Notes under the pieces: model-generated
Databases searched by the model: none
What the model was told of the DNA's origin: nothing
Seen by the model: only the letters and a program-made list of their open reading frames with translations
Source of the DNA: Eledone cirrhosa
Lineage: Eukaryota
Direction: 5' to 3'
NCBI GenBank assembly: GCA_964016885.1
Contig: OZ024745.1
Coordinates: forward strand, 29,636,001 to 29,700,000
DNA length: 64,000 bases
Made by a program: the position numbers and the translations under genes
Shown: one piece after another, positions 1 through 34,889 of the stretch
Numbering within the stretch: the stretch's first letter is position 1
Layout of the letters: every line of letters begins with the position of its first letter

Positions 1-440
1 AGACACAGTACAGTGTCTTGGACACAGAGACAGTACAGTGTCTTGGACACAAGACACAGTACAGTGCCTTGGACATCGGCACAGTACAGTGTCTTGGACA
101 CAGACACAGTACAGTGTCTTGGACACAGGCACAGTACAGTGTCTTGGACACAGACACAGTACAGTGTCTTGGACACAGAGACAGTACAGTGGCTTGGACA
201 CAGACACAGTACAGTGTCTTGGACACAGACACAGTACAGTGTCTTGGACACAGAGATAGTACAGTCTCTTGGACACAGACACAGTACAGTGCCTTGGACA
301 AAAAAACAGTACAGTGTCTTGGACACAGGCACAGTACAGTGTCTTGGACACAGACACAGTACAGTGTCTTGGACACAGAGATAGTACAGTGTCTTGGACA
401 CAGACACAGTACAGTGCCTTGGACACAGAGACAGTGCAGT

Positions 441-803
441 AAATGGGGCTTGGATTTTATCCTTTTTATCAGACATAAAACAGAAGTTTGACTTATATTC
501 AGATCAGCTTATAATCGAGTATACAGTTATTTTGTAAATAATCAATAATTTTAGAAATTTAGTGAAATAAATAACCATATTAATAAGTAGATGTTTAGAA
601 CATAAAAATATTCTCCCATAACAACATTTGAGAGTTAACTATTAACATCCTCTAATGATTTAGTAGAAAATATCTAAAAATATAAAAATTTGCAGTAAAG
701 ATTATAATTTTCAATATGAGGCTGTCAAAATGTTTTCTACTTTTGAAGAATGTCTTGCGAATGAGGTTTAATGTAGTACAGATGATGAAGAGTTAAATGT
801 TCT
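441..803. repeat. 363-bp AT-rich island in the satellite, copy 1
   Basis: Non-satellite sequence AAATGGGGCTTGG...TTAAATGTTCT that recurs at 8018, 24246 and 26254. Confidence 0.95.
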
Positions 804-3800
804 GCACACAGACACAGTACAGTGCCTTGCACACAGAGACAGTACAGTCTCTTGGACACAGAGACAGTACAGTGTCTTGAACATAGACACAGTACAGTAC
901 CTTGGACACAGACACAGTACAGTGCCTTGGACACAGAGATAGTACAGCATCTTGGACACAGAGACAGTACAGTGTCTTGGACACCGAGACAGTACAGTGT
1001 CTTGGACACAGAGACAGTACAGTGTCTTGAACACAGACACAGTACAGTGCCTTGGACACCGAGACAGTACAGTATCTTGGACACAGAGACAGTACAGTGT
1101 CTTTAACACAGACACAGTACAGTGCCTTGGACACAGAGACAGTACAGTGTCTTGGACACAGAGACAGTATAGTGTCTTGGACACAGTACAGTGCAGTGTC
1201 TTGGACACACAGATAGTACAGTGTCTTGGATACAGACACAGTAGAGTGTCTTTGACACAGACACAGTACAGTGTCTTGGATACAGACACAGTACAGTGTC
1301 TTGAACACAGACACAGTACAATGTCTTGGACACAGACACAGTACAGTGTCTTGAACACAGACACAGTACAGTGTCTTGGACACAGAGACAGTACAGTGTC
1401 TTGACCACAGATACATTACAGTACCTTGGACACAGAGACAGTACAGTGCCTTGGACACAGAGATAGTACAGTGTCTTGGACACAGAGACAGTACAGTGTC
1501 TTGGATACAGACACAGTACAGTGCCTTGGACACAGACACAGTACAGTGTCTTGGACACAGAGATAGTACAGTGTCTTGGACACAGAGACAGTACAGAGAC
1601 TTGGACACAGAGACAGTACAGTGTCTTGGACACAGACACAGTACAGTGTCTTGGACACAGAGACAGTACAGAGTCTTTGACACAGACACAGTACAGTGTC
1701 TTGATCACAGAGACAGTACAGTGTCTTGGACATCGACACAGTTCAGTGTCTTGGACACAGACACAGTACAGTGTCTTGGACACAGAGACAGTACAGTGGC
1801 TTGGACACAGAGACAGTACAGTGTCTTGGACATAGAGACAGTACAGTGTCTCTGACACAGACACAGTACAGTGTCTTGGACACAACACAGTACAGTGTCT
1901 TGGACACAGAGACAGTACAGAGACTTGGAGACAGAGATAGTACAGTGTATTGGACACAGAGACAGTACAGAGACTTGGACACAGAGACAATACAGTGTCT
2001 TGGACACAGAGACAGTACAGAGACTTGGACACAGAGACAGTACAGTGTCTTGGACACAGACACAGCACAGTGTCTTGGACACAGAGACAGTACAGTGTCT
2101 TGGACACAGACACAGTACAGTGCCTTGGACAACGGCACAGTACAGTGTCTTGGACACAGACACAGTACAGTCTCTTGGACACAGACACAGTACAGTGTCT
2201 TGGACACAGACACAGTACAGTGTCTTGGACACAGAGACAGTACAGTGGCTTGGACACAGACACAGTACAGTGTCTTGGACACAGACACAGTTATGTGTCT
2301 TGGACACAGAGATAGTACAGTCACTTGGACACAGACACAATACAGTGCCTTGGACAAAAAAACAGTACAATGTCTTGGACACAGACAAAGTACAGTGCCT
2401 TGGACACAGACACAGTACAGTGTCTTGGACACAGAGACAGTACAGTGTCTTGGACACAGAGACAGTACAGTGTCTTGGATACAGACACAGTACAGTGCAT
2501 TGGACATCGACACAGTACAGTGTCTTGGACACAGACACAGTACAGTGTCTTGGACACTGAGATAGTACAGTGTCTTGGACACAGAGACAGTACAGAGACT
2601 TGGACACAGAGACAGTACAGTGTCTTGGACACAGACACAGTACAGTGTCTTGGACACAGAGACAGTACAGTGTCTTGGACACAGACACAGTACAGTGCCT
2701 TGGACATCGGCACAGTACAGTGTCTTGGACACAGACACAGTACAGTGTCTTGGACACAGGCACAGTACAGTGTCTTGGACACAGACACAGTACAGTGTCT
2801 TGGACACAGAGACAGTACAGTGGCTTGGACACAGACACAGTACAGTGTCTTGGACACAGACACAGTACAGTGTCTTGGACACAGAAATAGTACAGTCTCT
2901 TGGACACAGACACAGTACAGTGCCTTGGACAAAAAACAGTACAATATCTTGGACACAGACAAAGTACAGTGCCTTGGACACAGACACAGTACAGTGTCTT
3001 GGACACAGACACAGTACAGTGTCTTGAACACAGACACAGTACAGTGCCTTGGACACCGAGACAGTACAGTGTCTTGGACACAGAGACAGTACAGTGTCTT
3101 TAACACAGACACAGTACAGTGCCTTGGACACAGAGACAGTACAGTGTCTTGGACACAGAGACAGTATAGTGTCTTGGACACAGAGACAGTGCAGTGTCTT
3201 GGACACACAGATAGTACAGTGTCTTGGATACAGACACAGTACAGTGTCTTGGACACAGACACAGTACAGTATCTTGGATACAGACACAGTACAGTGTCTT
3301 GAACACAGACACAGTACAATGTCTTGGACACAGAGACAGTACAGTGTCTTGAACACAGACACAGTACAGTGCCTTGGACACAGAGACAGTACAGTGTCTT
3401 GGACACAGAGACAGTACAGTGTCTTGGACACAGAGACAGTACAGTGTCTTGGACACACAGATAGTACAGTGTCTTGGACACAGACACAGTACAGTGTCTT
3501 GGACAAAGACACAGTACAGTGTCTTGACCACACACACAGTACTGTACCTTGGACACAGACACAGTACAGTGCCTTGGACACAGAGATAGTACAGTGTCTT
3601 GGACACAGAGACAGTACAGTGTCTTGGACACAGAGACAGTACAGTGTCTTGGATACAGACACAGTACAGTGCCTTGGACAAAAAAACAGTACAATGTCTT
3701 GGACACAGACAAAGTAGAGTGCCTTGGACACAGACACAGTACAGTGTCTTTGACACAGAGACAGTACAGTGTCTTGGACACAGAGACAGTACAGTGTCTT

Positions 3801-6800
3801 GGATACAGACACAGTACAGTGCATTGGACATCGACACAGTACAGTGTCTTGGACACAGACACAGTACAGTGCCTTGGACACTGAGATAGTACAGTGTCTT
3901 GGACACAGAGACAGTACAGAGACTTGGACACAGAGACAGTACAGTGCCTTGGACAAAAAAACAGTACAATGTCTTGGACACAGACAAAGTACAGTGCCTT
4001 GGACACAGACACAGTACAGTGTCTTGGACACAGACACAGTACAGTGTCTTGGACACAGAGATAGTACAGTGTGTTGAACACAGAGACAGTACAGTGCCTT
4101 GGACACCGAGACAGTACAGTGTCTTGGACACAGAGACTGTACAGTGTCTTTAACACAGACACAGTACAGTGCCTTGGACACAGAGACAGTACAGTGTCTT
4201 GGACACAGAGACAGTATAGTGTCTTGGACACAGAGACAGTGCAGTGTCTTGGACACACAGATAGTACAGTGTCTTGGATACAGACACAGTACAGTGTCTT
4301 GAACACAGACACAGTACAATGTCTTGGACACAGACACAGTACAGTGTCTTGAACACAGACACAGTACAGTGTCTTGGACACAGAGACAGTACAGTGTCTT
4401 GATCACAGATACATTACAGTACCTTGGACACAGAGACAGTACAGTGCCTTGGACACAGAGATAGTACAGTGTCTTGGACACAGAGACAGTACAGTGTCTT
4501 GGACACAGAGACAGTACAGTGTCTTGGATACAGACACAGTACAGTGCCTTGGACACAGACACAGTACAGTGTCTTGGACACAGAGATAGTACAGTGTCTT
4601 GGACACAGAGACAGTACAGAGACTTGGACACAGAGACAGTACAGAGTCTTGGACACAGACACAGTACAGTGTCTTGATCACAGAGACAGTACAGTGTCTT
4701 GGACATCGACACAGTACAGTGTCTTGGACACAGACACAGTACAGTGTCTTGGACACAGAGACAGTACAGTGGCTTGGACACAGAGACAGTACAGTGTCTT
4801 GGACATAGAGACAGTACAGTGTCTTGGACACAGACACAGTACAGTGTCTTGGACACAACACAGTACAGTGTCTTGGACACAGAGACAGTACAGAGTCTTG
4901 GAGACAGAGATAGTACAGTGTCTTGGACACAGAGACAGTACAGAGACTTGGACACAGAGACAGTACAGTGTCTTGGACACAGAGATAGTACAGAGACTTG
5001 GACACAGAGACAGTACAGTGTCTTGGACACAGACACAGCACAGTGTCTTGGACACAGAGACAGTACAGTGTCTTGGACACAGACACAGTACAGTGCCTTG
5101 GACAACGGCACAGTACAGTGTCTTGGACACAGACACAGTACAGTCTCTTGGACACAGACACAGTACAGTGTCTTGGACACAGACACAGTACAGTGTCTTG
5201 GACACAGAGACAGTACAGTGGCTTGGACACAGAGACAGTACAGTGTCTTGGACACAGACACAGTTATGTGTCTTGGACACAGAGATAGTACAGTCACTTG
5301 GACACAGACACAGTACAGTGCCTTGGACAAAAAAACATTACAATGTCTTGGACACAGAGACAGTACAGTGGCTTGGACACAGAGACAGTACAGTGTCTTG
5401 GACATAGAGACAGTACAGTGTCTTGGACACAGACACAGTACAGTGTCTTGGACACAACACAGTACAGTGTCTTGGACACAGAGACAGTACAGAGTCTTGG
5501 AGACAGAGATAGTACAGTGTCTTGGACACAGAGACAGTACAGAGACTTGGACAAAGAGACAGTACAGTGTCTTGGACACAGAGACAGTACAGAGACTTGG
5601 ACACAGAGACAGTACAGTGTCTTGGACACAGACACAGCACAGTGTCTTGGACACAGAGACAGTACAGTGTCTTGGACACAGACACAGTACAGTGCCTTGG
5701 ACAACGGCACAGTACAGTGTCTTGGACACAGACACAGTACAGTCTCTTGGACACAGACACAGTACAGTGCCTTGCACACAGAGACAGTACAGTCTCTTGG
5801 ACACAGAGACAGTACAGTGTCTTGAACATAGACACAGTACAGTACCTTGGACACAGACACAGTACAGTGCCTTGGACACAGAGATAGTACAGCATCTTGG
5901 ACACAGAGACAGTACAGTGTCTTGGACACCGAGACAGTACAGTGTCTTGGACACAGAGACAGTACAGTGTCTTGAACACAGACACAGTACAGTGCCTTGG
6001 AAACCGAGACAGTACAGTGTCTTGGACACAGAGACAGTACAGTGTCTTTAACACAGACACAGTACAGTGCCTTGGACACAGAGACAGTACAGTGTCTTGG
6101 ACACAGAGACAGTGCAGTGTCTTGGACACACAGATAGTACAGTGTCTTGGATACAGACACAGTACAGTGTCTTGGACACAGACACAGTACAGTGTCTTGG
6201 ATACAGACACAGTACAGTGTCTTGAACACAGACACAGTACAATGTCTTGGACACAGACACAGTACAGTGTCTTGAACACAGACACAGTACAGTGTCTTGG
6301 ACACAGAGACAGTACAGTGTCTTGACCACAGATACATTACAGTACCTTGGACACAGATACAGTACAGTGCCTTGGACACAGAGATAGTACAGTGTCTTGG
6401 ACACAGAGACAGTACAGTGTCTTGGACACAGAGACAGTACAGTGTCTTGGATACAGACACAGTACAATGCCTTGGACACAGACACAGTACAGTGTCTTGA
6501 ACACAGAGATAGTACAGTGTCTTGGACACAGAGACAGTACAGAGACTTGGACACAGAGACAGTACAGTGTCTTGGACACAGACACAGTACAGTGTCTTGG
6601 ACACAGAGACAGTACAGAGTCTTGGACACAGACACAGTACAGTGTCTTGATCACAGAGACAGTACAGTGTCTTGGACATCGACACAGTACAGTGTCTTGG
6701 ACACAGACACAGTACAGTGTCTTGGACAGAGAGACAGTACAGTGGCTTGGACACAGAGACAGTACAGTGTCTTGGACATAGAGACAGTACAGTGTCTTGG

Positions 6801-8017
6801 ACACAGACACAGTACAGTGTCTTGGACACAACACAGTACAGTGTCTTGGACACAGAGACAGTACAGAGTCTTGGAGACAGAGATAGTACAGTGTCTTGGA
6901 CACAGAGACAGTACAGAGACTTGGACACAGAGACAGTACAGTGTCTTGGACACAGAGACAGTACAGAGACTTGGACACAGAGACAGTACAGTGTCTTGGA
7001 CACAGACACAGCACAGTGTCTTGGACACAGAGACAGTACAGTGTCTTGGACACAGACACAGTACAGTGCCTTGGACAACGGCACAGTACAGTGTCTTGGA
7101 CACAGACACAGTACAGTCTCTTGGACACAGACACAGTACAGTGTCTTGGACACAGACACAGTACAGTGTCTTGGACACAGAGACAGTACAGTGTCTTGGA
7201 CACAGACACAGTACAGTGTCTTGGACACAGACACAGTTATGTGTCTTGGACACAGAGATAGTACAGTCACTTGGACACAAACACAGTACAGTGCCTTGGA
7301 AAAAAAACAGTACAATGTCTTGGACACAGACAAAGTACAGTGCCTTGGACACAGACACAGTACAGTGTCTTGGACACAGAGACAGTACAGTGTCTTGGAC
7401 ACAGAGACAGTACAGTGTCTTGGATACAGACACAGTACAGTGCATTGGACATCGACACAGTACAGTGTCTTGGACACAGACACAGTACAGTGTCTTGGAC
7501 ACTGAGATAGTACAGTGTCTTGGACACAGAGACAGTAGAGAGACTTGGACACAGAGACAGTACAGTGTCTTGGACACAGACACAGTACAGTGTCTTGGAC
7601 ACAGAGACAGTACAGTGTCTTGGACACAAGACACAGTACAGTGCCTTGGACATCGGCACAGTACAGTGTCTTGGACACAGACACAGTACAGTGTCTTGGA
7701 CACAGGCACAGTACAGTGTCTTGGACACAGACACAGTACAGTGTCTTGGACACAGAGACAGTACAGTGGCTTGGACACAGACACAGTACAGTGTCTTGGA
7801 CACAGACACAGTACAGTGTCTTGGACACAGAGATAGTACAGTCTCTTGGACACAGACACAGTACAGTGCCTTGGACAAAAAAACAGTACAGTGTCTTGGA
7901 CACAGGCACAGTACAGTGTCTTGGACACAGACACAGTACAGTGTCTTGGACACAGAGATAGTACAGTGTCTTGGACACAGACACAGTACAGTGCCTTGGA
8001 CACAGAGACAGTGCAGT

Positions 8018-8380
8018 AAATGGGGCTTGGATTTTATCCTTTTTATCAGACATAAAACAGAAGTTTGACTTATATTCAGATCAGCTTATAATCGAGTATA
8101 CAGTTATTTTGTAAATAATCAATAATTTTAGAAATTTAGTGAAATAAATAACCATATTAATAAGTAGATGTTTAGAACATAAAAATATTCTCCCATAACA
8201 ACATTTGAGAGTTAACTATTAACATCCTCTAATGATTTAGTAGAAAATATCTAAAAATATAAAAATTTGCAGTAAAGATTATAATTTTCAATATGAGGCT
8301 GTCAAAATGTTTTCTACTTTTGAAGAATGTCTTGCGAATGAGGTTTAATGTAGTACAGATGATGAAGAGTTAAATGTTCT
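8018..8380. repeat. 363-bp island, copy 2
   Basis: Identical by eye to copy 1 at an offset of 7,577. Confidence 0.95.
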
Positions 8381-11300
8381 GCACACAGACACAGTACAGT
8401 GCTTTGCACACAGAGACAGTACAGTCTCTTGGACACAGAGACAGTACAGTGTCTTGAACATAGACACAGTACAGTACCTTGGACACAGACACAGTACAGT
8501 GCCTTGGACACAGAGATAGTACAGCATCTTGGACACAGAGACAGTACAGTGTCTTGGACACCGAGACAGTACAGTGTCTTGGACACAGAGACAGTACAGT
8601 GTCTTGAACACAGACACAGTACAGTGCCTTGGACACCGAGACAGTACAGTATCTTGGACACAGAGACAGTACAGTGTCTTTAACACAGACACAGTACAGT
8701 GCCTTGGACACAGAGACAGTACAGTGTCTTGGACACAGAGACAGTATAGTGTCTTGGACACAGTACAGTGCAGTGTCTTGGACACACAGATAGTACAGTG
8801 TCTTGGATACAGACACAGTAGAGTGTCTTTGACACAGACACAGTACAGTGTCTTGGATACAGACACAGTACAGTGTCTTGAACACAGACACAGTACAATG
8901 TCTTGGACACAGACACAGTACAGTGTCTTGAACACAGACACAGTACAGTGTCTTGGACACAGAGACAGTACAGTGTCTTGACCACAGATACATTACAGTA
9001 CCTTGGACACAGAGACAGTACAGTGCCTTGGACACAGAGATAGTACAGTGTCTTGGACACAGAGACAGTACAGTGTCTTGGATACAGACACAGTACAGTG
9101 CCTTGGACACAGACACAGTACAGTGTCTTGGACACAGAGATAGTACAGTGTCTTGGACACAGAGACAGTACAGAGACTTGGACACAGAGACAGTACAGTG
9201 TCTTGGACACAGACACAGTACAGTGTCTTGGACACAGAGACAGTACAGAGTCTTTGACACAGACACAGTACAGTGTCTTGATCACAGAGACAGTACAGTG
9301 TCTTGGACATCGACACAGTTCAGTGTCTTGGACACAGACACAGTACAGTGTCTTGGACACAGAGACAGTACAGTGGCTTGGACACAGAGACAGTACAGTG
9401 TCTTGGACATAGAGACAGTACAGTGTCTCTGACACAGACACAGTACAGTGTCTTGGACACAACACAGTACAGTGTCTTGGACACAGAGACAGTACAGAGA
9501 CTTGGAGACAGAGATAGTACAGTGTATTGGACACAGAGACAGTACAGAGACTTGGACACAGAGACAATACAGTGTCTTGGACACAGAGACAGTACAGAGA
9601 CTTGGACACAGAGACAGTACAGTGTCTTGGACACAGACACAGCACAGTGTCTTGGACACAGAGACAGTACAGTGTCTTGGACACAGACACAGTACAGTGC
9701 CTTGGACAACGGCACAGTACAGTGTCTTGGACACAGACACAGTACAGTCTCTTGGACACAGACACAGTACAGTGTCTTGGACACAGACACAGTACAGTGT
9801 CTTGGACACAGAGACAGTACAGTGGCTTGGACACAGACACAGTACAGTGTCTTGGACACAGACACAGTTATGTGTCTTGGACACAGAGATAGTACAGTCA
9901 CTTGGACACAGACACAATACAGTGCCTTGGACAAAAAAACAGTACAATGTCTTGGACACAGACAAAGTACAGTGCCTTGGACACAGACACAGTACAGTGT
10001 CTTGGACACAGAGACAGTACAGTGTCTTGGACACAGAGACAGTACAGTGTCTTGGATACAGACACAGTACAGTGCATTGGACATCGACACAGTACAGTGT
10101 CTTGGACACAGACACAGTACAGTGTCTTGGACACTGAGATAGTACAGTGTCTTGGACACAGAGACAGTACAGAGACTTGGACACAGAGACAGTACAGTGT
10201 CTTGGACACAGACACAGTACAGTGTCTTGGACACAGAGACAGTACAGTGTCTTGGACACAGACACAGTACAGTGCCTTGGACATCGGCACAGTACAGTGT
10301 CTTGGACACAGACACAGTACAGTGTCTTGGACACAGGCACAGTACAGTGTCTTGGACACAGACACAGTACAGTGTCTTGGACACAGAGACAGTACAGTGG
10401 CTTGGACACAGACACAGTACAGTGTCTTGGACACAGACACAGTACAGTGTCTTGGACACAGAAATAGTACAGTCTCTTGGACACAGACACAGTACAGTGC
10501 CTTGGACAAAAAACAGTACAATATCTTGGACACAGACAAAGTACAGTGCCTTGGACACAGACACAGTACAGTGTCTTGGACACAGACACAGTACAGTGTC
10601 TTGAACACAGACACAGTACAGTGCCTTGGACACCGAGACAGTACAGTGTCTTGGACACAGAGACAGTACAGTGTCTTTAACACAGACACAGTACAGTGCC
10701 TTGGACACAGAGACAGTACAGTGTCTTGGACACAGAGACAGTATAGTGTCTTGGACACAGAGACAGTGCAGTGTCTTGGACACACAGATAGTACAGTGTC
10801 TTGGATACAGACACAGTACAGTGTCTTGGACACAGACACAGTACAGTATCTTGGATACAGACACAGTACAGTGTCTTGAACACAGACACAGTACAATGTC
10901 TTGGACACAGAGACAGTACAGTGTCTTGAACACAGACACAGTACAGTGCCTTGGACACAGAGACAGTACAGTGTCTTGGACACAGAGACAGTACAGTGTC
11001 TTGGACACAGAGACAGTACAGTGTCTTGGACACACAGATAGTACAGTGTCTTGGACACAGACACAGTACAGTGTCTTGGACAAAGACACAGTACAGTGTC
11101 TTGACCACACACACAGTACTGTACCTTGGACACAGACACAGTACAGTGCCTTGGACACAGAGATAGTACAGTGTCTTGGACACAGAGACAGTACAGTGTC
11201 TTGGACACAGAGACAGTACAGTGTCTTGGATACAGACACAGTACAGTGCCTTGGACAAAAAAACAGTACAATGTCTTGGACACAGACAAAGTAGAGTGCC

Positions 11301-14300
11301 TTGGACACAGACACAGTACAGTGTCTTTGACACAGAGACAGTACAGTGTCTTGGACACAGAGACAGTACAGTGTCTTGGATACAGACACAGTACAGTGCA
11401 TTGGACATCGACACAGTACAGTGTCTTGGACACAGACACAGTACAGTGCCTTGGACACTGAGATAGTACAGTGTCTTGGACACAGAGACAGTACAGAGAC
11501 TTGGACACAGAGACAGTACAGTGCCTTGGACAAAAAAACAGTACAATGTCTTGGACACAGACAAAGTACAGTGCCTTGGACACAGACACAGTACAGTGTC
11601 TTGGACACAGACACAGTACAGTGTCTTGGACACAGAGATAGTACAGTGTGTTGAACACAGAGACAGTACAGTGCCTTGGACACCGAGACAGTACAGTGTC
11701 TTGGACACAGAGACTGTACAGTGTCTTTAACACAGACACAGTACAGTGCCTTGGACACAGAGACAGTACAGTGTCTTGGACACAGAGACAGTATAGTGTC
11801 TTGGACACAGAGACAGTGCAGTGTCTTGGACACACAGATAGTACAGTGTCTTGGATACAGACACAGTACAGTGTCTTGAACACAGACACAGTACAATGTC
11901 TTGGACACAGACACAGTACAGTGTCTTGAACACAGACACAGTACAGTGTCTTGGACACAGAGACAGTACAGTGTCTTGATCACAGATACATTACAGTACC
12001 TTGGACACAGAGACAGTACAGTGCCTTGGACACAGAGATAGTACAGTGTCTTGGACACAGAGACAGTACAGTGTCTTGGACACAGAGACAGTACAGTGTC
12101 TTGGATACAGACACAGTACAGTGCCTTGGACACAGACACAGTACAGTGTCTTGGACACAGAGATAGTACAGTGTCTTGGACACAGAGACAGTACAGAGAC
12201 TTGGACACAGAGACAGTACAGAGTCTTGGACACAGACACAGTACAGTGTCTTGATCACAGAGACAGTACAGTGTCTTGGACATCGACACAGTACAGTGTC
12301 TTGGACACAGACACAGTACAGTGTCTTGGACACAGAGACAGTACAGTGGCTTGGACACAGAGACAGTACAGTGTCTTGGACATAGAGACAGTACAGTGTC
12401 TTGGACACAGACACAGTACAGTGTCTTGGACACAACACAGTACAGTGTCTTGGACACAGAGACAGTACAGAGTCTTGGAGACAGAGATAGTACAGTGTCT
12501 TGGACACAGAGACAGTACAGAGACTTGGACACAGAGACAGTACAGTGTCTTGGACACAGAGATAGTACAGAGACTTGGACACAGAGACAGTACAGTGTCT
12601 TGGACACAGACACAGCACAGTGTCTTGGACACAGAGACAGTACAGTGTCTTGGACACAGACACAGTACAGTGCCTTGGACAACGGCACAGTACAGTGTCT
12701 TGGACACAGACACAGTACAGTCTCTTGGACACAGACACAGTACAGTGTCTTGGACACAGACACAGTACAGTGTCTTGGACACAGAGACAGTACAGTGGCT
12801 TGGACACAGAGACAGTACAGTGTCTTGGACACAGACACAGTTATGTGTCTTGGACACAGAGATAGTACAGTCACTTGGACACAGACACAGTACAGTGCCT
12901 TGGACAAAAAAACATTACAATGTCTTGGACACAGAGACAGTACAGTGGCTTGGACACAGAGACAGTACAGTGTCTTGGACATAGAGACAGTACAGTGTCT
13001 TGGACACAGACACAGTACAGTGTCTTGGACACAACACAGTACAGTGTCTTGGACACAGAGACAGTACAGAGTCTTGGAGACAGAGATAGTACAGTGTCTT
13101 GGACACAGAGACAGTACAGAGACTTGGACAAAGAGACAGTACAGTGTCTTGGACACAGAGACAGTACAGAGACTTGGACACAGAGACAGTACAGTGTCTT
13201 GGACACAGACACAGCACAGTGTCTTGGACACAGAGACAGTACAGTGTCTTGGACACAGACACAGTACAGTGCCTTGGACAACGGCACAGTACAGTGTCTT
13301 GGACACAGACACAGTACAGTCTCTTGGACACAGACACAGTACAGTGTCTTGGACACAGACACAGTACAGTGTCTTGGACACAGAGACAGTACAGAGACTT
13401 GGACACAGAGACAGTACAGAGACTTGGACACAGAGACAGTACAGTGTCTTGGACACAGAGACAGTACAGTGTCTTGACCACAGACACAGTACTGTACCTT
13501 GGACACAGACACAGTACAGTGCCTTGGACACAGAGATAGTACAGTGTCTTGGACACAGAGACAGTACAGTGCATTGGACATCGACACAGTACAGTGTCTT
13601 GGACACAGACACAGTACAGTGTGTTGGACACTGAGATAGTACAGTGTCTTGGACACAGAGACAGTACAGAGACTTGGACACAGAGACAGTACAGTGTCTT
13701 GGACACAGACACACTACAGTGTCTTGGACACAGACACAGTACAGTGTCTTCGACACAGAGACAGTACAGTGTCTTGGACACAGACACAGTACAGTGCCTT
13801 GGACATCGGCACAGTACAGTGTCTTGGACACAGACACAGAACAGTGTCTTGGACACAGACACAGTACAGTGTCTTGGACACAGGCACAGTACAGTGTCTT
13901 GGACACAGACACAGTACAGTGTATTGGACACAGAGACAGTACAGTGTCTTGGATACAGACACAGTACAGTGTCTTGGACACAGACACAGTACAGTGTCTT
14001 GGACACAGACACAGTACAGTTTCTTGGATACAGACACAGTACAGTGTCTTGGATACAGACACAGTACAGTGTCTTGGACACAGACACAGTACAGTGTCTT
14101 GGACACAGAGACAGTACAGTGTCTTGGATACAGAGACTGTACAGTGTCTTGGACACAGACACAGTACAGTGTCTTGGACACAGAGACAGTACAGTGTCTT
14201 GGACACAGACACAGTATAGTGTCTTGGACACAGACACAGTACAGTGTCTTGGATACAGAGACAGTACAGTTTCTTGGATACAGACACAGTAGAGTGTCTT

Positions 14301-17300: not shown

Positions 17301-20300
17301 CATAGACACAGTACAGTACCTTGGACACAGACACAGTACAGTGTCTTGGACACAGAGATAGTACAGTGTCTTGGATACAGATACAGTACAGTGTCTTGGA
17401 CACACAGATAGTACAGTGTCTTGGACACAGAGATAGTACAGTATCTTGGACACAGAGACAGTACAGTGTCTTGGATACCGAGACAGTACAGTGTCTTGGA
17501 CACAGACACAGTACAGTGCCTTGGACACAGAGATAGTACAGTATCTTGGACACAGAGACAGTACAGTGTCTTGGACACCGAGACAGTACAGTGTCTTGGA
17601 CACAGAGACAGTACAGTGGCTTGAACACAGACACAGTACAGTGCCTTGGACACAGAGATAGTACAGTGCCTTGGACACAGAGACAGTACAGTGTCTTGGA
17701 CACAGAGACAGTACAGTGTCTTGGATACAGACACAGTACAGTGTCTTGGACACAGAGATAATACAGTACCTTGGACACAGACACAGTACAGTGCCTTGGA
17801 CACAGAGATAGTACAGTATCTTGGACACAGAGACAGTACAGTGTCTTGGACACCGAGACAGTACAGTATATTGGACACAGAGACAGTACAGTGTCTTGAA
17901 CACAGACACAGTACAGTGCCTTGGACACAGAGATAGTACAGTGCCTTGGACACAGAGACAGTACAGTGTCTTGGACACAGAGACAGTACAGTGTCTTGGA
18001 CACAGAGACAGTACAGTGTCTTGGACACACAGATAGTACAGTGTCTTGGACACAGACACAGTACAGTGTCTTGGACACAGACACAGTACAGTGTCTTGGA
18101 CACACAGATAGTACAGTGTCTTGGATACAGACACAGTACAGTGTCTTGGACACAGAGACAGTACAGTGTCTTGGATACAGACACAGTACAGTGTCTTGGA
18201 CACAGACACAGTACAGTGTCTTGGACACAGAGACAGTACAGTGTCTTGGTCACAGAGACAGTACAGTGTCTTGGATACAGACACAGTACAATTTCTTGGA
18301 CACAGATACAGTACAGTGTCTTGGATACAGACACAGTACAGTGTCTTGGACACAGACGCAGTACAGTGTCTTGGACACAGAGACAGTACAGTGTCTTGGA
18401 TACAGACACAGTACAGTGTCTTGGATACAGACACAGTACAATGTCTTGGACACAGAGACAGTACAGTGTCTTGGATACAGACACAGTACAGTGTCTTGGA
18501 CACAGACACAGCACAGTGTCTTGGACACAGAGACAGTACAGTGTCTTGAACACAGAACAGTACAGTGTCTTGGACACAGAGACAGTACAGTGTCTTGGAC
18601 ACAGAGACAGTACAGTGTCTTGGACACACAGATAGTACAGTGTCTTGGATACAGACACAGTACAGTGTCTTGGACACAGAGACAGTACAGTGTCTTGGAC
18701 ACAGAGACAGTACAGTGTCTTGGACACACAGATAGTACAGTGTCTTGGATACAGACACAGTACAGTGTCTTGGACACAGAGACAGTACAGTGTCTTGGAC
18801 ACACAGATAGTACAGTGTCTTGGACACAGACACAGTACAATGTCTTGTATACAGACACAGTACAATGTCTTGGACACAGACACAGTACAGTGTCTTGGAT
18901 ACAGACACAGTACAATGTCTTGGACACAGAGACAGTACAGTGTCTTGGACACAGACACAGTACAGCGTCTTGGATACAGCCACAGTACAATGTCTTGGAC
19001 ACAGACACAGTACAGTGTCTTGGACACACAGACACAGTACAGTGTCTTGGACACACAGATAGTACAGTGTCTTGGATACAGACACAGTACAGTGTCTTGG
19101 ATAGAGACACAGTACAGTGTCTTGGATACAGACACAGTACAATGTCTTGGACACAGAGACAGTACAGTGTCTTGGACACAGACACAGTACAGTGTCATGG
19201 ATACAGAGACAGTACAGTGTCTTGGACACAGACACAGTACAGTGTCTTGGATACAGACACAGTACAATGTCTTGGACACAGACACAGTACAGTGTCTTGG
19301 ATACAGATACAGTACAGTGTCTTGGATACAGACACAGTACAGTGTCTTGGACACAGAGACAGTACAGTGTCTTGGATACAGACACAGTACAGTGTCTTGG
19401 ACAGAGACACAGTACAGTGTCTTGGACACAGAGACAGTACAGTGTCTTGGTCACAGAGACAGTACAGTGTCTTGGATACAGACACAGTACAATTTCTTGG
19501 ACACAGATACAGTACAGTGTCTTGGATACAGACACAGTACAGTGTCTTGGACACAGACGCAGTACAGTGTCTTGGACACAGAGACAGTACAGTGTCTTGG
19601 ATACAGACACAGTACAGTGTCTTGGATACAGACACAGTACAATGTCTTGGACACAGAGACAGTACAGTGTCTTGGATACAGACACAGTACAGTGTCTTGG
19701 ACACAGACACAGCACAGTGTCTTGGACACAGAGACAGTACAGTGTCTTGAACACAGACACAGTACAGTGTCTTGGACACAGAGACAGTACAGTGTCTTGG
19801 ACACAGACACAGTACAGTGTCTTGGATACAGACACAGTACAGTGTCTTGAACACAGACACAGTACAATGTCTTGGACACAGACACAGTACAGTGTCTTGA
19901 ACACAGACACAGTACAGTGTCTTGGACACAGAGACAGTACAGTGCCTTGGACACAGAGACAGTACAGTGTCTTGGACACAGAGACAGTACAGTACCTTGG
20001 ACACAGACACAGTACAGTGTCTTGGACACAGAGATAGTACAGTGTCTTGGATACAGATACAGTACAGTGTCTTGGACACACAGATAGTACAGTGTCTTGG
20101 ACACAGAGATAGTAGAGTATCTTGGACACAGAGACAGTACAGTGTCTTGGACACCGAGACAGTACAGTGTCTTGGACACAGACACAGTACAGTGCCTTGG
20201 ACACAGAGATAGTACAGTATCTTGGACACAGAGACAGTACAGTGTCTTGGACACCGAGACAGTACAGTGTCTTGGACACAGAGACAGTACAGTGTCTTGA

Positions 20301-23300
20301 ACACAGACACAGTACAGTGCCTTGGACACAGAGATAGTACAGTGCCTTGGACACAGAGACAGTACAGTGTCTTGGACACAGAGACAGTACAGTGTCTTGG
20401 ATACAGACACAGTACAGTGTCTTGGACACAGAGATAATACAGTACCTTGGACACAGACACAGTACAGTGCCTTGGACACAGAGATAGTACAGTATCTTGG
20501 ACACAGAGACAGTACAGTGTCTTGGACACCGAGACAGTACAGTATATTGGACACAGAGACAGTACAGTGTCTTGAACACAGACACAGTACAGTGCCTTGG
20601 ACACAGAGATAGTACAGTGCCTTGGACACAGAGACAGTACAGTGTCTTGGACACAGAGACAGTACAGTGTCTTGGACACAGAGACAGTACAGTGTCTTGG
20701 ACACACAGATAGTACAGTGTCTTGGACACAGACACAGTACAGTGTCTTGGACACAGACACAGTACAGTGTCTTGGACACACAGATAGTACAGTGTCTTGG
20801 ATACAGACACAGTACAGTGTCTTGGACACAGAGACAGTACAGTGTCTTGGATACAGACACAGTACAGTGTCTTGGACACAGACACAGTACAGTGTCTTGG
20901 ACACAGAGACAGTACAGTGTCTTGGTCACAGAGACAGTACAGTGTCTTGGATACAGACACAGTACAATTTCTTGGACACAGATACAGTACAGTGTCTTGG
21001 ATACAGACACAGTACAGTGTCTTGGACACAGACGCAGTACAGTGTCTTGGACACAGAGACAGTACAGTGTCTTGGATACAGACACAGTACAGTGTCTTGG
21101 ATACAGACACAGTACAATGTCTTGGACACAGAGACAGTACAGTGTCTTGGATACAGACACAGTACAGTGTCTTGGACACAGACACAGCACAGTGTCTTGG
21201 ACACAGAGACAGTACAGTGTCTTGAACACAGACACAGTACAGTGTCTTGGACACAGAGACAGTACAGTGTCTTGGACACAGAGACAGTACAGTGTCTTGG
21301 ACACACAGATAGTACAGTGTCTTGGATACAGACACAGTACAGTGTCTTGGACACAGAGACAGTACAGTGTCTTGGACACAGAGACAGTACAGTGTCTTGG
21401 ACACACAGATAGTACAGTGTCTTGGATACAGACACAGTACAGTGTCTTGGACACAGAGACAGTACAGTGTCTTGGACACACAGATAGTACAGTGTCTTGG
21501 ACACAGACACAGTACAATGTCTTGTATACAGACACAGTACAATGTCTTGGACACAGACACAGTACAGTGTCTTGGATACAGACACAGTACAATGTCTTGG
21601 ACACAGAGACAGTACAGTGTCTTGGACACAGACACAGTACAGCGTCTTGGATACAGCCACAGTACAATGTCTTGGACACAGACACAGTACAGTGTCTTGG
21701 ACACACAGACACAGTACAGTGTCTTGGACACACAGATAGTACAGTGTCTTGGATACAGACACAGTACAGTGTCTTGGATAGAGACACAGTACAGTGTCTT
21801 GGATACAGACACAGTACAATGTCTTGGACACAGAGACAGTACAGTGTCTTGGACACAGACACAGTACAGTGTCATGGATACAGAGACAGTACAGTGTCTT
21901 GGACACAGACACAGTACAGTGTCTTGGATACAGACACAGTACAATGTCTTGGACACAGACACAGTACAGTGTCTTGGATACAGATACAGTACAGTGGCTT
22001 CGACACAGACACAGTACAGTGCCTCGGGCACAGAGACAGAAGAGAGTCTTGGACACAGAGACAGTACAGTGTCTTGGACACAGACACAGTACAGTGCCTT
22101 GGACACAGACACAGTACAGTGTCTTGGACACAGAGACAGTACAGTGCCTTGGACACAGAGACAGTACAGTGTCTTGGACACAGAGACAGTACAGAGACTT
22201 GGACACAGAGACAGTTCAGTGTCTTGGACACAGACACAGTACAGTGTCTTGGACACAGAGACAGTACAGTGTCTTGGACACAGACACAGTACAGTGCCTT
22301 GGACATCGGCACAGTACAGTGTCTTGAACACAGACACAGTACAGTGCCTTGGACACAGAGACAGTACAGTGTCTTGGACACAGAGACAGTACAGTGTCTT
22401 GGACACAGAGACAGTACAGTGTCTTGGACACACAGATAGTACAGTGTCTTGGATACAGACACAGTACAGTGTCTTGGACACAGACACAGTACAGTGTCTT
22501 GGATACAGACACAGTACAGTGTCTTGAACACAGACACAGTACAATGTCTTGGACACAGACACAGTACAGTGTCTTGAACACAGACACAGTACAGTGTCTT
22601 GGACACAGAGACAGTACAGTGCCTTGGACACAGAGACAGTACAGTGTCTTGGACACAGAGACAGTACAGTGTCTTGGATACAGACACAGTACAGTGCCTT
22701 GGACACAGACACAGTACAGTGTCTTGGACACAGAGATAGTACAGTGTCTTGGACACAGAGACAGTACAGAGACTTGGACACAGAGACAGTACAGTGTCTT
22801 GGACTCAGACACAGTACAGTGTCTTGGAGACAGAGACAGTACAGAGTCTTGGACACAGAGACAGTACAGTGTCTTGGTCACAGAGACAGTACAGTGTCTT
22901 AGACACAGACACAGTACAGTGCCTTGGACATCGACACAGTACAGTGTCTTGGACACAGACACAGTACAGTGTCTTGGACACAGAGACAGTACAGTGGCTT
23001 GGACACAGAGACAGTACAGTGTCTTGGACATAGAGACAGTAGAGTGTCTTGGACACAGACACAGTACAATGTCTTGGACACAACACAGTACAGTGTCTTG
23101 GACACAGAGACAGTACAGAGTCTTGGACACAGAGATAGTACAGTGTCTTGGACACAGAGACAGTACAGAGACTTGGACACAGAGACAGTACAGTGTCTTG
23201 GATACAGAGACAGTACAGAGACTTGGACACAGAGACAGTACAATGTCTTGGATACAGACACAGTACAGTGTCTTCGACACAGAGACAGTACAGTGTCTTG

Positions 23301-24245
23301 GACACAGACACAGTACAGTGCCTTGGACACCGGCACAGTACAGTGTCTTGGACACAGACACAGTACAGTCTCTTGGACACAGACACAGTACAGTGTCTTG
23401 GACACAGACACAGTACAGTGTCTTGGACACAGAGACAGTACAGTGGCTTGGACACAGAGACAGTACAGTGTCTTGGACACAGACACAGTACACTGTATTG
23501 GACACAGAGATAGTACAGTCTCTTGGACACAGACACTACAGTGCCTTGGACAAAAACAGTACAATGTCTTGTCTTGAACACAGACAACGTACAGTGCCTT
23601 GGACACAGACACAGTACAGTGTCTTGGACACAGAGACAGTACAGTGTCTTGGACACAGAGACAGTACAGTGTCTTGGACACAGAAACAGTACAGTGTCTT
23701 GGACACTGAGATAGTACAGTGTCTTGGACACAGAGACAGTACAGAGACTTGGACACAGAGACAGTACAGTGTCTTGGACACAGACACAGTACAGTGTCTT
23801 GGACACAGAGACAGTACAGTGTCTTAGACACAGACACAGTACAGTGCCTTGGACATCGGCACAGTACAGTGTCTTGGACACAGACACAGTACAGTGTCTT
23901 GGACACAAGCACAGTACAGTGTCTTGGACACAGACACAGTACAGTGTCTTGGACACAGAGACAGTACAGTGGCTTGGACACAGACACAGTACAGTGTCTT
24001 GGACACAGACACAGTACAGTGTATTGGACACAGAGATAGTAAAGTCTCTTGGACACAGACACAGTACAGTGCCTTGGACAAAAAAACAGTACAATGTCTT
24101 GGACACAGACAAAGTACAGTGCGTTGGACACAGACACAGTACAGTGTCTTGGACACAGACACAGTACAGTGTCTGGGACACAGAGATAGTACAGTGTCTT
24201 GGACACAGACACAGTACAGTGCCTTGGACACAGAGACAGTGCTGT

Positions 24246-24608
24246 AAATGGGATTTGGATTTTATCCTATTTATCAGACATAAAACAGAAGGTTGACTTA
24301 TATTCAGATCAGCTTATAATCGAGTATACAGTTATTTTGTAAATAATCAATAATTTTAGAAATTTAGTGAAATAAATAACCATATTAATAAGTAGATGTT
24401 TAGAACATAAAAATATTCTCCCATAACAACATTTGAGAGTTAACTATTAACATCCTCTAATGATTTAGTAGAAAATATCTAAAAATATAAAAATTTGCAG
24501 TAAAGATTATAATTTTCAATATGAGGCTGTCAAAATGTTTTCTACTTTTGAAGAATGTCTTGCGAATGAGGTTTAATGTAGTACAGATGATGAAGCGTTA
24601 AATGTTCT
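24246..24608. repeat. 363-bp island, copy 3
   Basis: Same length as copy 1 with a few substitutions (e.g. GGGATTTGG, GAAGCGTTA). Confidence 0.95.
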
Positions 24609-26253
24609 GCACACAGACACAGTACAGTGCCTTGCACACAGAGACAGTACAGTCTCTTGGACACAGAGACAGTACAGTGTCTTGAACATAGACACAGTAC
24701 AGTACCTTGGACACAGACACAGTACAGTGCCTTGGACACAGAGATAGTACAGTATCTTGGACACAGAGACAGTACAGTGTCTTGGACACCGAGACAGTAC
24801 AGTGTCTTGGACACAGAGACTGTACAGTGTCTTGAACACAGACACAGTACAGTTCCTTGGACACAGAGATAGTACAGTGCCTTGGACACAGAGATATTAC
24901 AGTGTCTTGGACACAGAGACAGTACAGTGTCTTGGATACAGAGACAGTACAGTGTCTTGGACACAGAGACAGTACAGAGACTTGGACACAGAGACAGTTC
25001 AGTGTCTTGGACACAGACACAGTACAGTGTCTTGGACACAGAGACAGTACAGTGTCTTGGACACAGACACAGTACAGTGCCTTGGACATCGGCACAGTAC
25101 AGTGTCTTGAACACAGACACAGTACAGAGTCTTGGACACAGAGATACTACAGTGTCTTGGACACAGACACAGTACAGTGCCTTGGACACAGACACAGTAC
25201 AGTGCCTTGGACACAGAGACAGTACAGTGTCTTGGACACAGACACAGTACAGTGCCTTGGACACAGACACAGTACAGTGTCTTGGAAACAGACACAGTAC
25301 AGTGTCTTGGACACAGACACAGTACAGTGTCTTGGACACAGAGACAGTACAGTGTCTTGAACACAGAGATAGTACAGTGTCTTGTTCACAGAGACAGTAC
25401 AGTGTCTTGGTCACAGAGACAGTACAGTGTCTTGGTCACAGACACAGCACAGTGCCTTGGACATCGACACAGTACAGTGTCTTGGACACAGACACAGTAC
25501 AGTGTCTTGGACACAGAGACAGTACAGCGGCTTGGACACAGAGACAGTACAGTGTCTTGGACATAGAGACAGTACAGTGTCTTGGACACAGACACAGTAC
25601 AGTGTCTTGGACACAACACAGTACAGTGTCTTGGACACAGAGACAGTACAGAGTCTTGGACACAGAGATAGTACAGTGTCTTGGACACAGACACAGTACA
25701 GAGACTTGGACACAGAGAGAGTACAGTGTCTTGGACACAGAGACAGTACAGAGACTTGGACACAGAGACAGTACAGTGTCTTGGACACAGACACAGTACA
25801 GTGTCTTGGACACAGAGACAGTACAGTGTCTTGGACACAGACACAGTACAGTGCCTTGGACATCGGCACAGTACAGTGTCTTGGACACAGACACAGTACA
25901 GTCTCTTGGACACAGACACAGTACAGTGTCTTGGACACAGACACAGTACAGTTTCTTGGACACAGAGACAGTACAGTGGCTTGGACACAGACACAGTACA
26001 GTGTCTTGGACACAGACACAGTACAGTGTCTTGGACACAGAGATAGTACAGTCTCTTGGACATAGACACAGTACAGTGCCTTGGACAAAAAAAACAGTAC
26101 AATGTCTTGGACACAGACAAAGTACAGTGCCTTGGACACAGACACAGTACAGTGTCTTGGACACAGACACAGTACAGTGTCTTGGACACAGAGATAGTAC
26201 AGTGTCTTGGACACAGACACAGTACAGTGCCTTGGACACAGAGACAGTGCAGT

Positions 26254-26616
26254 AAATTGGGTTTGCATTTTATCCTACTTATCAGACATAAAACAGAAGG
26301 TTGACTTATATTCAGATCAGCTTATAATCGAGTATACAGTTATTTTGTAAATAATCAATAATTTTAGAAATTTAGTGAAATAAATAACCATATTAATAAG
26401 TAGATGTTTAGAACATAAAAATATTCTCCCATAACAACATTTGAGAGTTAACTATTAACATCCTCTAACGATTTAGTAGAAAATATCTAAAAATATAAAA
26501 ATTTGCAGTAAAGATTATAATTTTCAATATGAAGCTGTCAAAATGTTTTCTACTTTTGAAGAATGTCTTGCGAATGAGGTTTAATGTAGTACAGATTATG
26601 AAGAGTTAAATATTCT
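26254..26616. repeat. 363-bp island, copy 4
   Basis: Same length, the most diverged copy, 2,008 bp after copy 3. Confidence 0.95.
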
Positions 26617-29600
26617 GCACACAGACACAGTACAGTGCCTTGCACACAGAGACAGTACAGTCTCTTGGACACAGAGACAGTACAGTGTCTTGAACATAGA
26701 CACAGTACAGTACCTTGGACACAGACACAGTACAGTGCCTTGGACACAGAGATAGTACAGTATCTTGGACACAGAGACAGTACAGTGTCTTGGACACCGA
26801 GACAGTACAGTTTCTTGGACACAGAGACAGTACAGTGTCTTGAACACAGACACAGTACAGTGCCTTGGACACAGAGACAGTACAGTGTCTTGGACACAGA
26901 GACAGTACAGTGTCTTGGACACACAGATAGTACAGTGTCTTGGATACAGACACAGTACAGTGTCTTGGACACAGACACAGTACAGTGTCTTGGATACAGA
27001 CACAGTACAATGTCTTGGACACAGAGACAGTACAGTGTCTTGACCACAGACACAGTACAGTATCTTGGACACAGACACAGTACAGTGCCTTGGACACAGA
27101 GATAGTACAGTGTCTTGGATACAGAGACAGTACAGTGTCTTGGACACAGAGACAGTACAGTGTCTTGGATACAGACACAGTACAGTGCCTTGGACACAGA
27201 CACAGTACAGTGTCTTGGACACAGACACAGTACAGTGTCTTGGACATCGACACAGTACAGTGTCTTGGACACGGACACAGTAGAGTGTCTTGGACACAGA
27301 GACAGTACAGTGGCTTGGACACAGAGACAGAACAGTGTCTTGGACATAGAGACAGTACAGTGTCTTGGACACAGACACAGTACAGTGTATTGGACACAGA
27401 GACAGTACAGAGTCTTGGACACAGAGATTGTACAGTGTCTTGGACACAGAGACAGTACAGTGTCTTGGACACAGAGACAGTACAGAGTCTTGGACACAGA
27501 GATAGTACGGTGTCTTGGACACAGACACAGAACAGTGTCTTGGGCACAGAGATAGTACAGTGTCTTGGATACAGACACAGTACAGTGACTTGGACACAGA
27601 GACAGTACAGTGTCTTGGACACAGAGATAGTACAGTGTCTTGGATACAGACACAGTACAGTGTCTTGGATACAGACACAGTACAGTGTCTTGGCCACAGA
27701 GATAGTACAGTGTCTTGGACACAGAGAGAGTACATTGTCTTGGACACAGACACAGTACAGTGTCTTGGACACAGAGACAGTACAGAGTCTTGGACACAGA
27801 GACAGTACAGTGTCTTGGACACAGACACAGTACAGTGTCTTGGACATCGACACAGTACAGTGTCTTGGACACGGACACAGTAGAGTGTCTTGGACACAGA
27901 GACAGTACAGTGGCTTGGACACAGAGACAGAACAGTGTCTTGGACATAGAGACAGTACAGTGTCTTGGACACAGACACAGTACAGTGTCTTGGACACAGA
28001 GACAGTACAGAGTCTTGGACACAGAGATAGTACAGTGTCTTGGACACAGAGACAGTACAGTGTCTTGGACACAGAGACAGTACAGAGTCTTGGACACAGA
28101 GATAGTACGGTGTCTTGGACACAGACACAGAACAGTGTCTTGGACACAGAGATAGTACAGTGTCTTGGATACAGACACAGTACAGTGTCTTGGATACAGA
28201 CACAGTACAGTGTCTTGGCCACACAGATAGTACAGTGTCTTGGACACAGAGAGAGTACATTGTCTTGGACACAGACACAGTACAGTGTCTTGGACACAGA
28301 GACAGTACAGAGTCTTGGACACAGAGACAGTACAGTGTCTTGGACACTGTGACAGTACAGTGTCTTGGATACAGACACAGTACAGTGCCTTGGACATCGA
28401 CAAAGGACAGTGTCTTGGACACAGACACAGTACAGTGTCTTGGACACAGAGACAGTACAGTGGCTTGGACACAGACACAGTACTGTGTCTTGGACACAGA
28501 GACAGTACAGTGTCTTGGACACAGAGATAGTACAGTGTCTTGGACACAGACACAGTACCGTGTCTTGGACACATAGATAGTACAGTGGTTTGGACACAGA
28601 CAAAGATCAGTGTCTTGGACACAGACACAGTACAGTGCCTTGGACACAGACACAGTACAGTGTCTTGGACACAGACACAGTACAGTGCCTTGGACACAGA
28701 CACAGTACAGTGTCTTGGACACAGACACAGTACAGTGTCTTGGACACAGACACAGTGTAGTGCCTTGGACACAGAGATAGTACAGTGTCTTGGACACAGA
28801 GACAGTACAGTGTCTTGTACACAAAGATAGTACAGTGTCTTGGATATAGACACAGTACAGTGTCTTGGACACAGACAGAGTTCAGTGTCTTGGACACAGA
28901 CACAGTACTGTGTCTTGGACACAGAGATAGTACAGTGTCTTGGACACAGAGACAGTACAGTGTCTTGGATACAGACACAGTACAGTGTCTTGGACACAGA
29001 GATAGTACAGTCTCTTGGATACAGACACAGTACAGTGTCTTGGACACAGAGATAGTACGGTGTCTTGTACTCAGACACAGAACAGTGTCTTGGACACAGA
29101 GATAGTACAGTGTCTTGGATACAGATACAGTACAGTGACTTGGACACAGAGACAGTACAGTGTCTTGGACACAGAGATAGTACAGTGTCTTGGATACAGA
29201 CACAGTACAGTGTCTTGGATACAGACACAGTACAGTGTCTTGGACACAGAGATAGTACAGTGTCTTGGACACAGAGAGAGTACAGTGTCTTGGACACAGA
29301 CACAGTACAGTGTCTTGGACACAGAGACAGTCCAGAGTCTTGGACACAGAGACAGTACAGTGTCTTGGACACTGTGACAGTACAGTGTCTTGGATACAGA
29401 CACAGTACAGTGCCTTGGACATCGACAAAGGACAGTGTCTTGGACACAGACACAGTACAGTGTCTTGGACACAGAGACAGTACAGTTGCTTGGACACAGA
29501 CACAGTACTGTGTCTTGGACACAGAGACAGTACAGTGTTTTGGACACAGAGATAGTACAGTGTCTTGGACACAGACACAGTACCGTGTCTTGGACACATA

Positions 29601-30794
29601 GATAGTACAGTGGTTTGGACACAGACAAAGATCAGTGTCTTGGACACAGAGACAGTACAGTGTCTTGGACACAGAAAAAGTACAGTGTCTTGGACACAGA
29701 CGCAGTACAGTGTCTTGGACACAGACACAGTACAGTGCCTTGGACACAGACACAGTACAGTGTCTTGGACACAGACACAGTACAGTGCCTTGGACACAAA
29801 CACAGTACAGTGTCTTGGACACAGACACAGTACAGTGCCTTGGACACAGACACAGTACAGTGTCCTGGACACAGACACAGTACAGTGCCTTGGACACACA
29901 CACAGTACAGCGCCTTGGACACAGACACAGTACAGCGTCTTGGACACAGACACAGTACAGTGCCTTGGACACAGACACAGTACAGTGTCTTGGACACAGA
30001 CACAGTACAGCGTCTTGGACACAGACACAGTACAGTGTCTTGGACACAGACACAGTCCAGTGCCTTGGACACAGACACAGTACAGTGTCTTGGACACAGA
30101 CACAGTAGAATGTCTTGGACACAGACACAGTACACTGTCTTCGACACAGATACAGTACAGTGTCTTGAACACAGACACAGTAGAGTGTCTTGGACACAGA
30201 CACAGTACAGTGCCTTCGACACAGACACAGTAGAGTGTCTTGGACACAGACACAGTACAGCGTCTTGGACACAGACACAGTACAGCGTCTTGGACACAGA
30301 CACAGTACAGTGTCTTGGACACAGACACAGTACAGCGTCTTGGACACAGACACAGTACAGTGTCTTGGACACAGACACAGTCCAGTGCCTTGGACACAGA
30401 CACAGTACAGTGTCTTGGACACAGACACAGTAGAATGTCTTGGACACAGACACAGTACAGTGTCTTCGACACAGATACAGTACAGTGTCTTGAACACAGA
30501 CACAGTAGAGTGTCTTGGACACAGACACAGTACAGTGCCTTCGACACAGACACAGTACAGTGGCTTGGATATTTTACCCGTTTTTCTCAACGATTATTTA
30601 TCAATCAACCAGATGTTCATTCATATCTCTTAAATCATCATCCTCGTTTTTATGTTGACTTTTCCATGGTAGCATGGGTTGGACAGGACTTTTTTAGGCA
30701 ACGTTTTATAGCCTGATACACAGCCAATTATTTTTAAAGAAGGAAAGAGAGTGATAGAGAGGAAGTTAGAAAGAAATATAGAGGAAGAATAGTC

Positions 30795-30925
30795 CCCAGT
30801 ATTAGATTGGTACTTTTGGATGAAAGGCAAAGTTGACCCCCGTAGGATTTGCACTCAGAACACCGAGAACCAGAATAAATACTGCCAAGCATTCTATCTG
30901 ATGTTCTAATGAATCTGCCAATTCA
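30795..30925 (-). mobile_element. Degenerate tRNA-derived SINE fragment
   Basis: GGATGAAAGGCAAAGTTGAC...GGATTTGCACTCAG matches the reverse complement of the copies at 59.7 and 60.4 kb. Confidence 0.6.
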
Positions 30926-31175
30926 GCACTAAAAGGAGTGCAGCTGAACCACAGCTCTGACTTAGATGTAGAGTCTGTCACCCTCTCCTCCTTTCTTTCG
31001 TTACCTAATAATCCTTACCGTTTCCTCCCTTTTCCTCTCTTTTATGACAGTTACGGTTCTTTCCAATGTTACTTTCTTTTTCTATATGTTTGATTAGATA
31101 TTACATTCTTTAGTATTTTGTATGTAATTTTATCCTAGAAATATATTTGACTATTTTGAAATCAAGGGAACTAAC

Positions 31176-31295
31176 CTTAATATAGAGACTTAGTTGGTCA
31201 TCATAACCAACCCATTGGTTACCTGCAACTAGATAGGGCACTTTTTCATCGGTCAACCGTTTGACTGTGGCACCCTGATGGATCATGTGACAGAT
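31176..31295 (-). CDS. GH18 chitinase, coding exon 7 (last visible; the gene continues)
   Basis: TAG|ATC...AAG|GTTAG, 120 nt, phase 0. Translates ICHMIHQGATVKRLTDEKVPYLVAGNQWVGYDDQLSLYIK, containing the GH18 motif VPY...NQWVGYDD. Confidence 0.93.
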
Positions 31296-31774: not shown

Positions 31775-31960
31775 CTCATAGTATGCCAAAAATCCAGTTT
31801 CCCCTGTATAGCTACCAGCTGTTCCCCCATGTATGGATGGGGCATGCAATCCATTCACGTTTGGGTTTCTTAAGGTGAAACTTCTGCCGTACAATGGTAA
31901 TCCAACATTAAGTTTATTCAGGGGAACACCTTTCTCTTTCCAATATCTCATAGTCCACAT
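31775..31960 (-). CDS. GH18 chitinase, coding exon 6
   Basis: CAG|ATG...GAG|GTAAA, 186 nt. Contains KLNVGLPLYGRSFTL and GFLAYYE, typical GH18 motifs. Confidence 0.95.
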
Positions 31961-34835: not shown

Positions 34836-34889
34836 CTAGAGATGTTATTTTCAAAATTTCAAATTGCCCAGTGGCTTGACATAGCATAA

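Follow-up and report, generated by a model that had tools for sequence, protein, structure and literature searches.

A 66-kb minisatellite array fills one intron of an intact chitinase gene in Eledone cirrhosa

Introduction

How does a protein-coding gene come to hold tens of kilobases of satellite DNA in a single intron, and can such a gene still work? The question is raised by a 64,000-bp stretch of the Eledone cirrhosa genome (contig OZ024745.1, here C5, positions 29,636,001-29,700,000), which is referred to below as the window. A first-pass annotation of the window had described a satellite array of more than 30 kb inside a chitinase intron and had predicted that the gene's last exons lie to the left. 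Chitinase expression is documented for the salivary and digestive glands of cephalopods, as stated in the available part of PMC12607849.

The chitinase gene on both sides of the array

Ten minus-strand exons (Table 1) join into a stop-free GH18 chitinase of 481 amino acids with a CBM14 tail. All introns of this joined model are GT..AG, and the phases match across the ten exons. The seven exons in the window had been annotated as a single frame of 357 codons without stops, which proved correct; they include a hydrophobic N-terminus and, in exon 3, DxxDxDxE, the catalytic motif of GH18 enzymes. The prediction of further exons was also borne out. In a minus-strand motif scan left of the window, the last barrel strand turned up 1.1 kb beyond the array, followed after another 4 kb by a six-cysteine CBM14 module, and exons 8-10 lie there on the same strand, phase matched and in one protein with the others.

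The module in exon 10 matches PF01607 over positions 1-53 of 53 (E 3.3e-14). The PF00704 segments in exons 7 and 8 each fall alone below the whole-protein cut-off. Judged from sequence, the predicted GH18 barrel is complete, including its last strand, once the two exons are joined, and 219 of 233 retrieved homologues align as a single segment across the junction of exons 7 and 8. In the genome, exon 8 has a single identical match, and all others reach at most 62%. The best homologue is the Octopus vulgaris 'probable chitinase 10' (P0038), with 66% identity over residues 27-405, and end-to-end identity is 46-48% to P0064 and P0066. A close orthologue was not found in two exon searches, in which the best matches reached 67% and 71% (120 matches listed of 196 and 245). 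The layout of a signal-like N-terminus, a GH18 barrel, a Pro/Thr linker and CBM14 is that of chitotriosidase and AMCase. AATAAA occurs 147 and 211 bp after the stop codon.

None of the 481 codons, 18 splice sites or six CBM14 cysteines is damaged, and the catalytic motif is intact, which in itself is weak proof of present function. Exon 7 was compared with organism B (run X4), where, among the contigs listed, 7 of 40 codons carry amino-acid-changing differences and 3 carry silent ones, on a contig that could be a paralogue. These counts give no sign of purifying selection; selection that is relaxed or positive could account for them, as could a paralogue. At the nucleotide level, 12 of the 120 listed bases of exon 7 (31,176-31,295) are different in organism B, about the level seen in the adjoining intron. 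Fast evolution of the exon 7 part of the enzyme is possible on these sequence counts.

Ten contigs of the genome carry at least 18 GH18 domains in all, including opposed pairs about 50 kb apart at C2:149.36-149.42 Mb and C10:14.58-14.63 Mb.

Table 1. Coordinates of the features discussed. Bare positions refer to the window; positions with a contig handle (C2, C5, C13) are genomic.
Feature	Position	Strand	Remarks
Exon 1	38988..39057	minus	start codon, hydrophobic N-terminus; signal peptide predicted by hydrophobicity only
Exon 2	37404..37596	minus	GH18 profile positions 1-48
Exon 3	36172..36424	minus	GH18 51-131; contains DxxDxDxE
Exon 4	33388..33512	minus	homology through joined model
Exon 5	32613..32736	minus	homology through joined model
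Exon 6	31775..31960	minus	GH18 207-256
Exon 7	31176..31295	minus	GH18 267-297; phase-0 donor of large intron
Intron 7	C5:29,599,500-29,667,175 (window part 1..31175)	minus	67,676 bp, GT..AG, phase 0
Exon 8	C5:29,599,354-29,599,499	minus	last barrel strand, GH18 299-317; left of window
Exon 9	C5:29,598,430-29,598,488	minus	Pro/Thr linker; picked by splice phase, least secure
Exon 10	C5:29,595,193-29,595,362	minus	CBM14 and stop; left of window
Composite tandem array, whole	C5:29,600,638-29,666,569		no N
Composite tandem array, window part	1..30569	no strand	TRF and left-side sequence
370-bp AT-rich spacer	436..805	no strand	1 of 16
370-bp spacer	8013..8382	no strand	identical to 436-805
370-bp spacer	24241..24610	no strand	
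370-bp spacer	26249..26618	no strand	
Tandem duplication within array, 7,577 bp	1..13346 (in window)		starts ~1.8 kb left of window
49-bp array	C2:24.9-25.1 Mb		at least 200 kb
34-bp array	C13:24.9-25.1 Mb		at least 200 kb

Size and composition of the array

The window part of the array is one 25-bp tandem repeat (TRF, 86% matches), and inspection of 200 kb left of the window showed that it extends 35 kb further. The intronic location stood, and the size needed one correction: at 65,932 bp, the array is about twice what the window had shown. Its units are arranged head-to-tail, and the whole comprises about 2,400 copies of the 25-bp monomer, which differ by 6.2% on average from the majority unit, and 16 spacers of 370 bp. 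The window's share is (30,569 - 4 x 370)/25 = 1,164 monomers, in agreement with an earlier count of about 1,160.

The array occupies 97% of intron 7 (65,932 of 67,676 bp). The remaining introns of the gene measure 479-3,067 bp (479-2,659 bp for introns 1-6), and intron 7 is thus 22 times the next longest, where more than tenfold had been claimed. For comparison, 17 paralogous GH18 domains were paired by position; the span from exon 6 to exon 8 is 1.4-20.7 kb in these (median 2.5 kb) and 68.3 kb here. A long array is absent from the long paralogue spans, of which two of 20 kb were covered in full and a third for 10 of its 11.9 kb.

The 16 spacers have a mean pairwise difference of 1.9%. The left edge of the array, outside the window, is itself a spacer and is continuous with the flank via an old dispersed repeat. 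Nested duplications appear as exact repeats at lags of 0.85-7.6 kb. The largest one tabulated, of 7,577 bp, shows 1 mismatch in 7,596 bp and may be very recent, or an assembly duplicate. Each monomer contains a small inverted repeat. A 300-nt piece of the array's sense RNA folds far better than shuffled sequences do (z -7.4, 0 of 200 as good).

On its sense strand, the array carries no AATAAA, no GTRAG and no strong acceptors, an absence that reflects just two distinct units, the monomer and the spacer. Elsewhere in the gene, these signals occur at 0.83, 1.73 and 0.23 per kb, respectively. AATAAA is absent from the sense strand of the whole of intron 7 and occurs 16 times on the opposite strand. 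ATTAAA lies on the sense strand of each spacer (16 copies).

A single locus and its probable origin

Exact searches of the 3-Gb genome place the monomer at one locus. All 737 matches to the monomer (23-mer) lie inside the array, in forward orientation with none reversed, and so do all 105 dimer matches, again with none reversed; as the monomer search used exact patterns, diverged copies elsewhere would be missed. All 16 full spacer matches in the genome are also at the array. Outside matches to the flank plus spacer, at 74-81% identity, cross the boundary between the two in 25 of 25 cases, and it is at this boundary that the 15 inner spacers begin. The spacer was captured from the left flank, and the leftmost spacer is, from its sequence context, likely the source copy of the others. 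With a spacer of this descent, growth in place is the likely origin of the array. The right edge also resembles the start of the spacer, but with a score of 35.5 against a shuffle maximum of 46.5 this was disregarded.

Satellites can also be borne by transposons, as in the internal repeats of Helitrons and MITEs or in foldback elements. Like these, the array adjoins an old dispersed-repeat fragment in the intron. A transposon-borne or foldback origin was rejected, as the unit occurs in 0 of 14 fetched copies of the flank-related dispersed repeats and the exact monomers are all forward. Regions 61,001-62,100 and 34,400-34,930 of the window look by eye like fragments of a Helitron helicase and a LINE reverse transcriptase.

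The history of the array may have begun with a short seed that arose next to the old dispersed-repeat fragment, the inverted repeat of the monomer perhaps favouring slippage. A single exchange would then have brought a 365-bp copy of the flank into the array, and repeated unequal exchange would have duplicated kilobase blocks further.

Support from sequencing runs

The locus is present in three runs (X1-X3) from a single sample, which may be the source sample, and intron 7 is assembled without N. Spacer contigs in X1 and X2 have 9-13 times the depth of the exon 7 contig, a rough figure, where 11.5-13.5 is expected from the assembly. Summed over the peak monomer bins, depth is 3,600-5,900 times that of the exon, where the assembly has about 2,400 monomers; contig depth is not copy number and supports the order of array size only. 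One contig each in X1, X2 and X3 bridges spacer to satellite by 31 letters, in the common inner form, and neither outer array junction is bridged among the contigs listed for X1-X5. In organism B, the picture is inconsistent as to the array: depth is 643-859 on right-edge monomers, left-edge monomers are uncovered, and the spacer core has no match among the contigs listed. Exon 7 and the array junction are uncovered in the RAD-seq run X5.

Tandem arrays elsewhere in the genome

The genome was sampled in 53 evenly spaced 10-kb tiles over 20 contigs. Two of the 53 tiles lie wholly within arrays, of 34- and 49-bp units (95% interval 0.5-13%), and, probed over 200 kb each, both arrays were present at 13 of 13 positions. 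Tandem arrays of at least 1 kb with a period of at least 10 account for 8.8% of the sampled bases, some microsatellite multiples included. For this genome, 66 kb is a moderate array size. Introns of Octopus minor average 5.4 kb, according to the available part of PMC6279123. With arrays so common and introns of this length, some arrays of such size are therefore to be expected in introns.

Other repeats were seen along the way. Two probes 30 kb apart (C3:24.90 and 24.93 Mb) share one other repeat; close by, at C3:24.995-25.007 Mb, a 52-bp array extends for at least 12 kb. Two sampled loci (L110 and L117) carry 84-bp tandem repeats that resemble C2H2 zinc-finger coding arrays. Within the window, smaller arrays of the 40-bp and (ACC)n types lie upstream of the chitinase start codon, at 43,845-44,549, 42,223-43,006 and 56,879-57,358.

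Competing explanations

The explanation that we favour, with a probability of about 0.68, is that a single-locus 25-bp minisatellite, grown in place, fills intron 7 of an intact chitinase gene that is likely transcribed and spliced, and that the array is probably a tolerated passenger. Pol II would still transcribe through the array, with splicing by exon definition, and the scarcity of strong decoy signals on its sense strand may be what makes the array tolerable. Pol II advances at 1-3 kb/min; elongation would take tens of minutes longer. Because this genome often holds still larger repeat blocks, the array is likely tolerated rather than useful. Assembly could in principle have misplaced the array into the gene or much inflated it, and the unbridged outer junctions among the contigs listed and the nearly perfect 7,577-bp duplication would suit such an error. 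This is very improbable: without that duplication the array would still be 58 kb, the intron has no N, spacer and monomer depths are of the assembled order, and the leftmost spacer, in running into the flank via the dispersed repeat, ties the array to intron 7. Equally remote is a transcript that reads through donor 7 and leaves exons 8-10 stranded. The first-pass annotation was right about that donor (AAG/GTTAG at 31,176/31,175) and about the short frame behind it, which ends at a stop 21 codons on. However, the product would lose the last barrel strand, though exon 8 aligns with homologues there; both AATAAA and ATTAAA are absent from 31,175-30,570, and exons 8-10 are intact.

It is unlikely that the gene is crippled, that is, a young pseudogene buffered by its paralogues whose full-length mRNA is prevented by silencing, by stalling or by premature polyadenylation at the spacers. 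The sense-strand ATTAAA copies, the existence of 17 or more further GH18 domains in the genome and the 7 replacement against 3 silent codons of exon 7 would fit such a gene, and had it died only when the spacers spread (~1% per lineage), it would still look intact with a probability of 0.12-0.33 at assumed rates. However, after long decay (4.5%) this probability falls below 0.01 at assumed rates, the coding and splicing features listed above are all intact, and the whole intron lacks AATAAA in sense. A role for the array, either as a length-tunable timer or enhancer or as a source of structured intronic RNA to which editing or splicing factors would bind, is decidedly unlikely. Such a role would accord with the folding of the sense RNA, with the strand contrast in AATAAA (0 against 16) and with the enhancement by CACNA1C intronic 30-mer arrays in reporter assays (10.1101/311795, in the part available). 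However, good folding is expected of any tandem repeat of a quasi-palindromic unit and is no sign of selection. Additionally, the strand contrast depends on one spacer unit, none of the 17 paralogous spans approaches such a size, the array is young by its spacer divergence, and large arrays are common in the genome. A bolder proposal is that octopod genes routinely grow and splice private intronic satellites of tens of kilobases, of which the survivors are signal-silent, and that the 66 kb of hairpin-rich nascent RNA here would be an editing substrate or a length-tunable dial on a digestive enzyme; we consider this quite unlikely.

Comparison with known systems

As an analogy, the human CACNA1C intronic 30-mer array comes closest to the chitinase array, and not the megabase introns of the Drosophila Y. 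In the available part of Song, Lowe and Kingsley (10.1101/311795), the CACNA1C array is described as a single-locus, lineage-specific array in intron 3 whose units vary, and as polymorphic, with enhancer activity. Both arrays consist of a short unit in hundreds of copies or more within one intron of a protein-coding gene. Unlike that of CACNA1C, the chitinase array has about 2,400 units, makes up 97% of its intron and contains 16 flank-derived spacers.

The Drosophila Y fertility genes kl-3 and kl-5 have gigantic satellite-filled introns (PMC6508613, available part). These introns reach hundreds of kilobases to megabases, keep their size from one species to another and depend on blanks and heph (PMC11207136 and PMC6508613, available parts); such genes form part of a germ-line programme that has its own RNA-binding proteins. 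The first-pass annotation had drawn this comparison, which holds for the repeat filling and fails on size. In both systems, small exons are split by a tandem-repeat intron that Pol II would have to cross. However, the Drosophila introns are Y-linked, whereas the 67.7-kb intron here lies in what is likely a digestive-enzyme gene, in a genome where larger arrays are common. As for conserved size, the 17 chitinase spans, which are from paralogues and not orthologues, vary from 1.4 to 20.7 kb and give no sign of it. No cephalopod satellite array in an intron turned up among the papers listed in searches of the open literature.

Implications

The present evidence shows no new mechanism. What the locus offers is a fully assembled snapshot of a satellite that is likely being born within a gene, at one locus and with intact exons on both sides, and its 16 flank-derived spacers are an internal age marker of the array. 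For annotation, it is a warning that genes with such introns may be split or truncated. It is also a natural test of the repeat load that an ordinary intron tolerates, in which array length can be set against expression.
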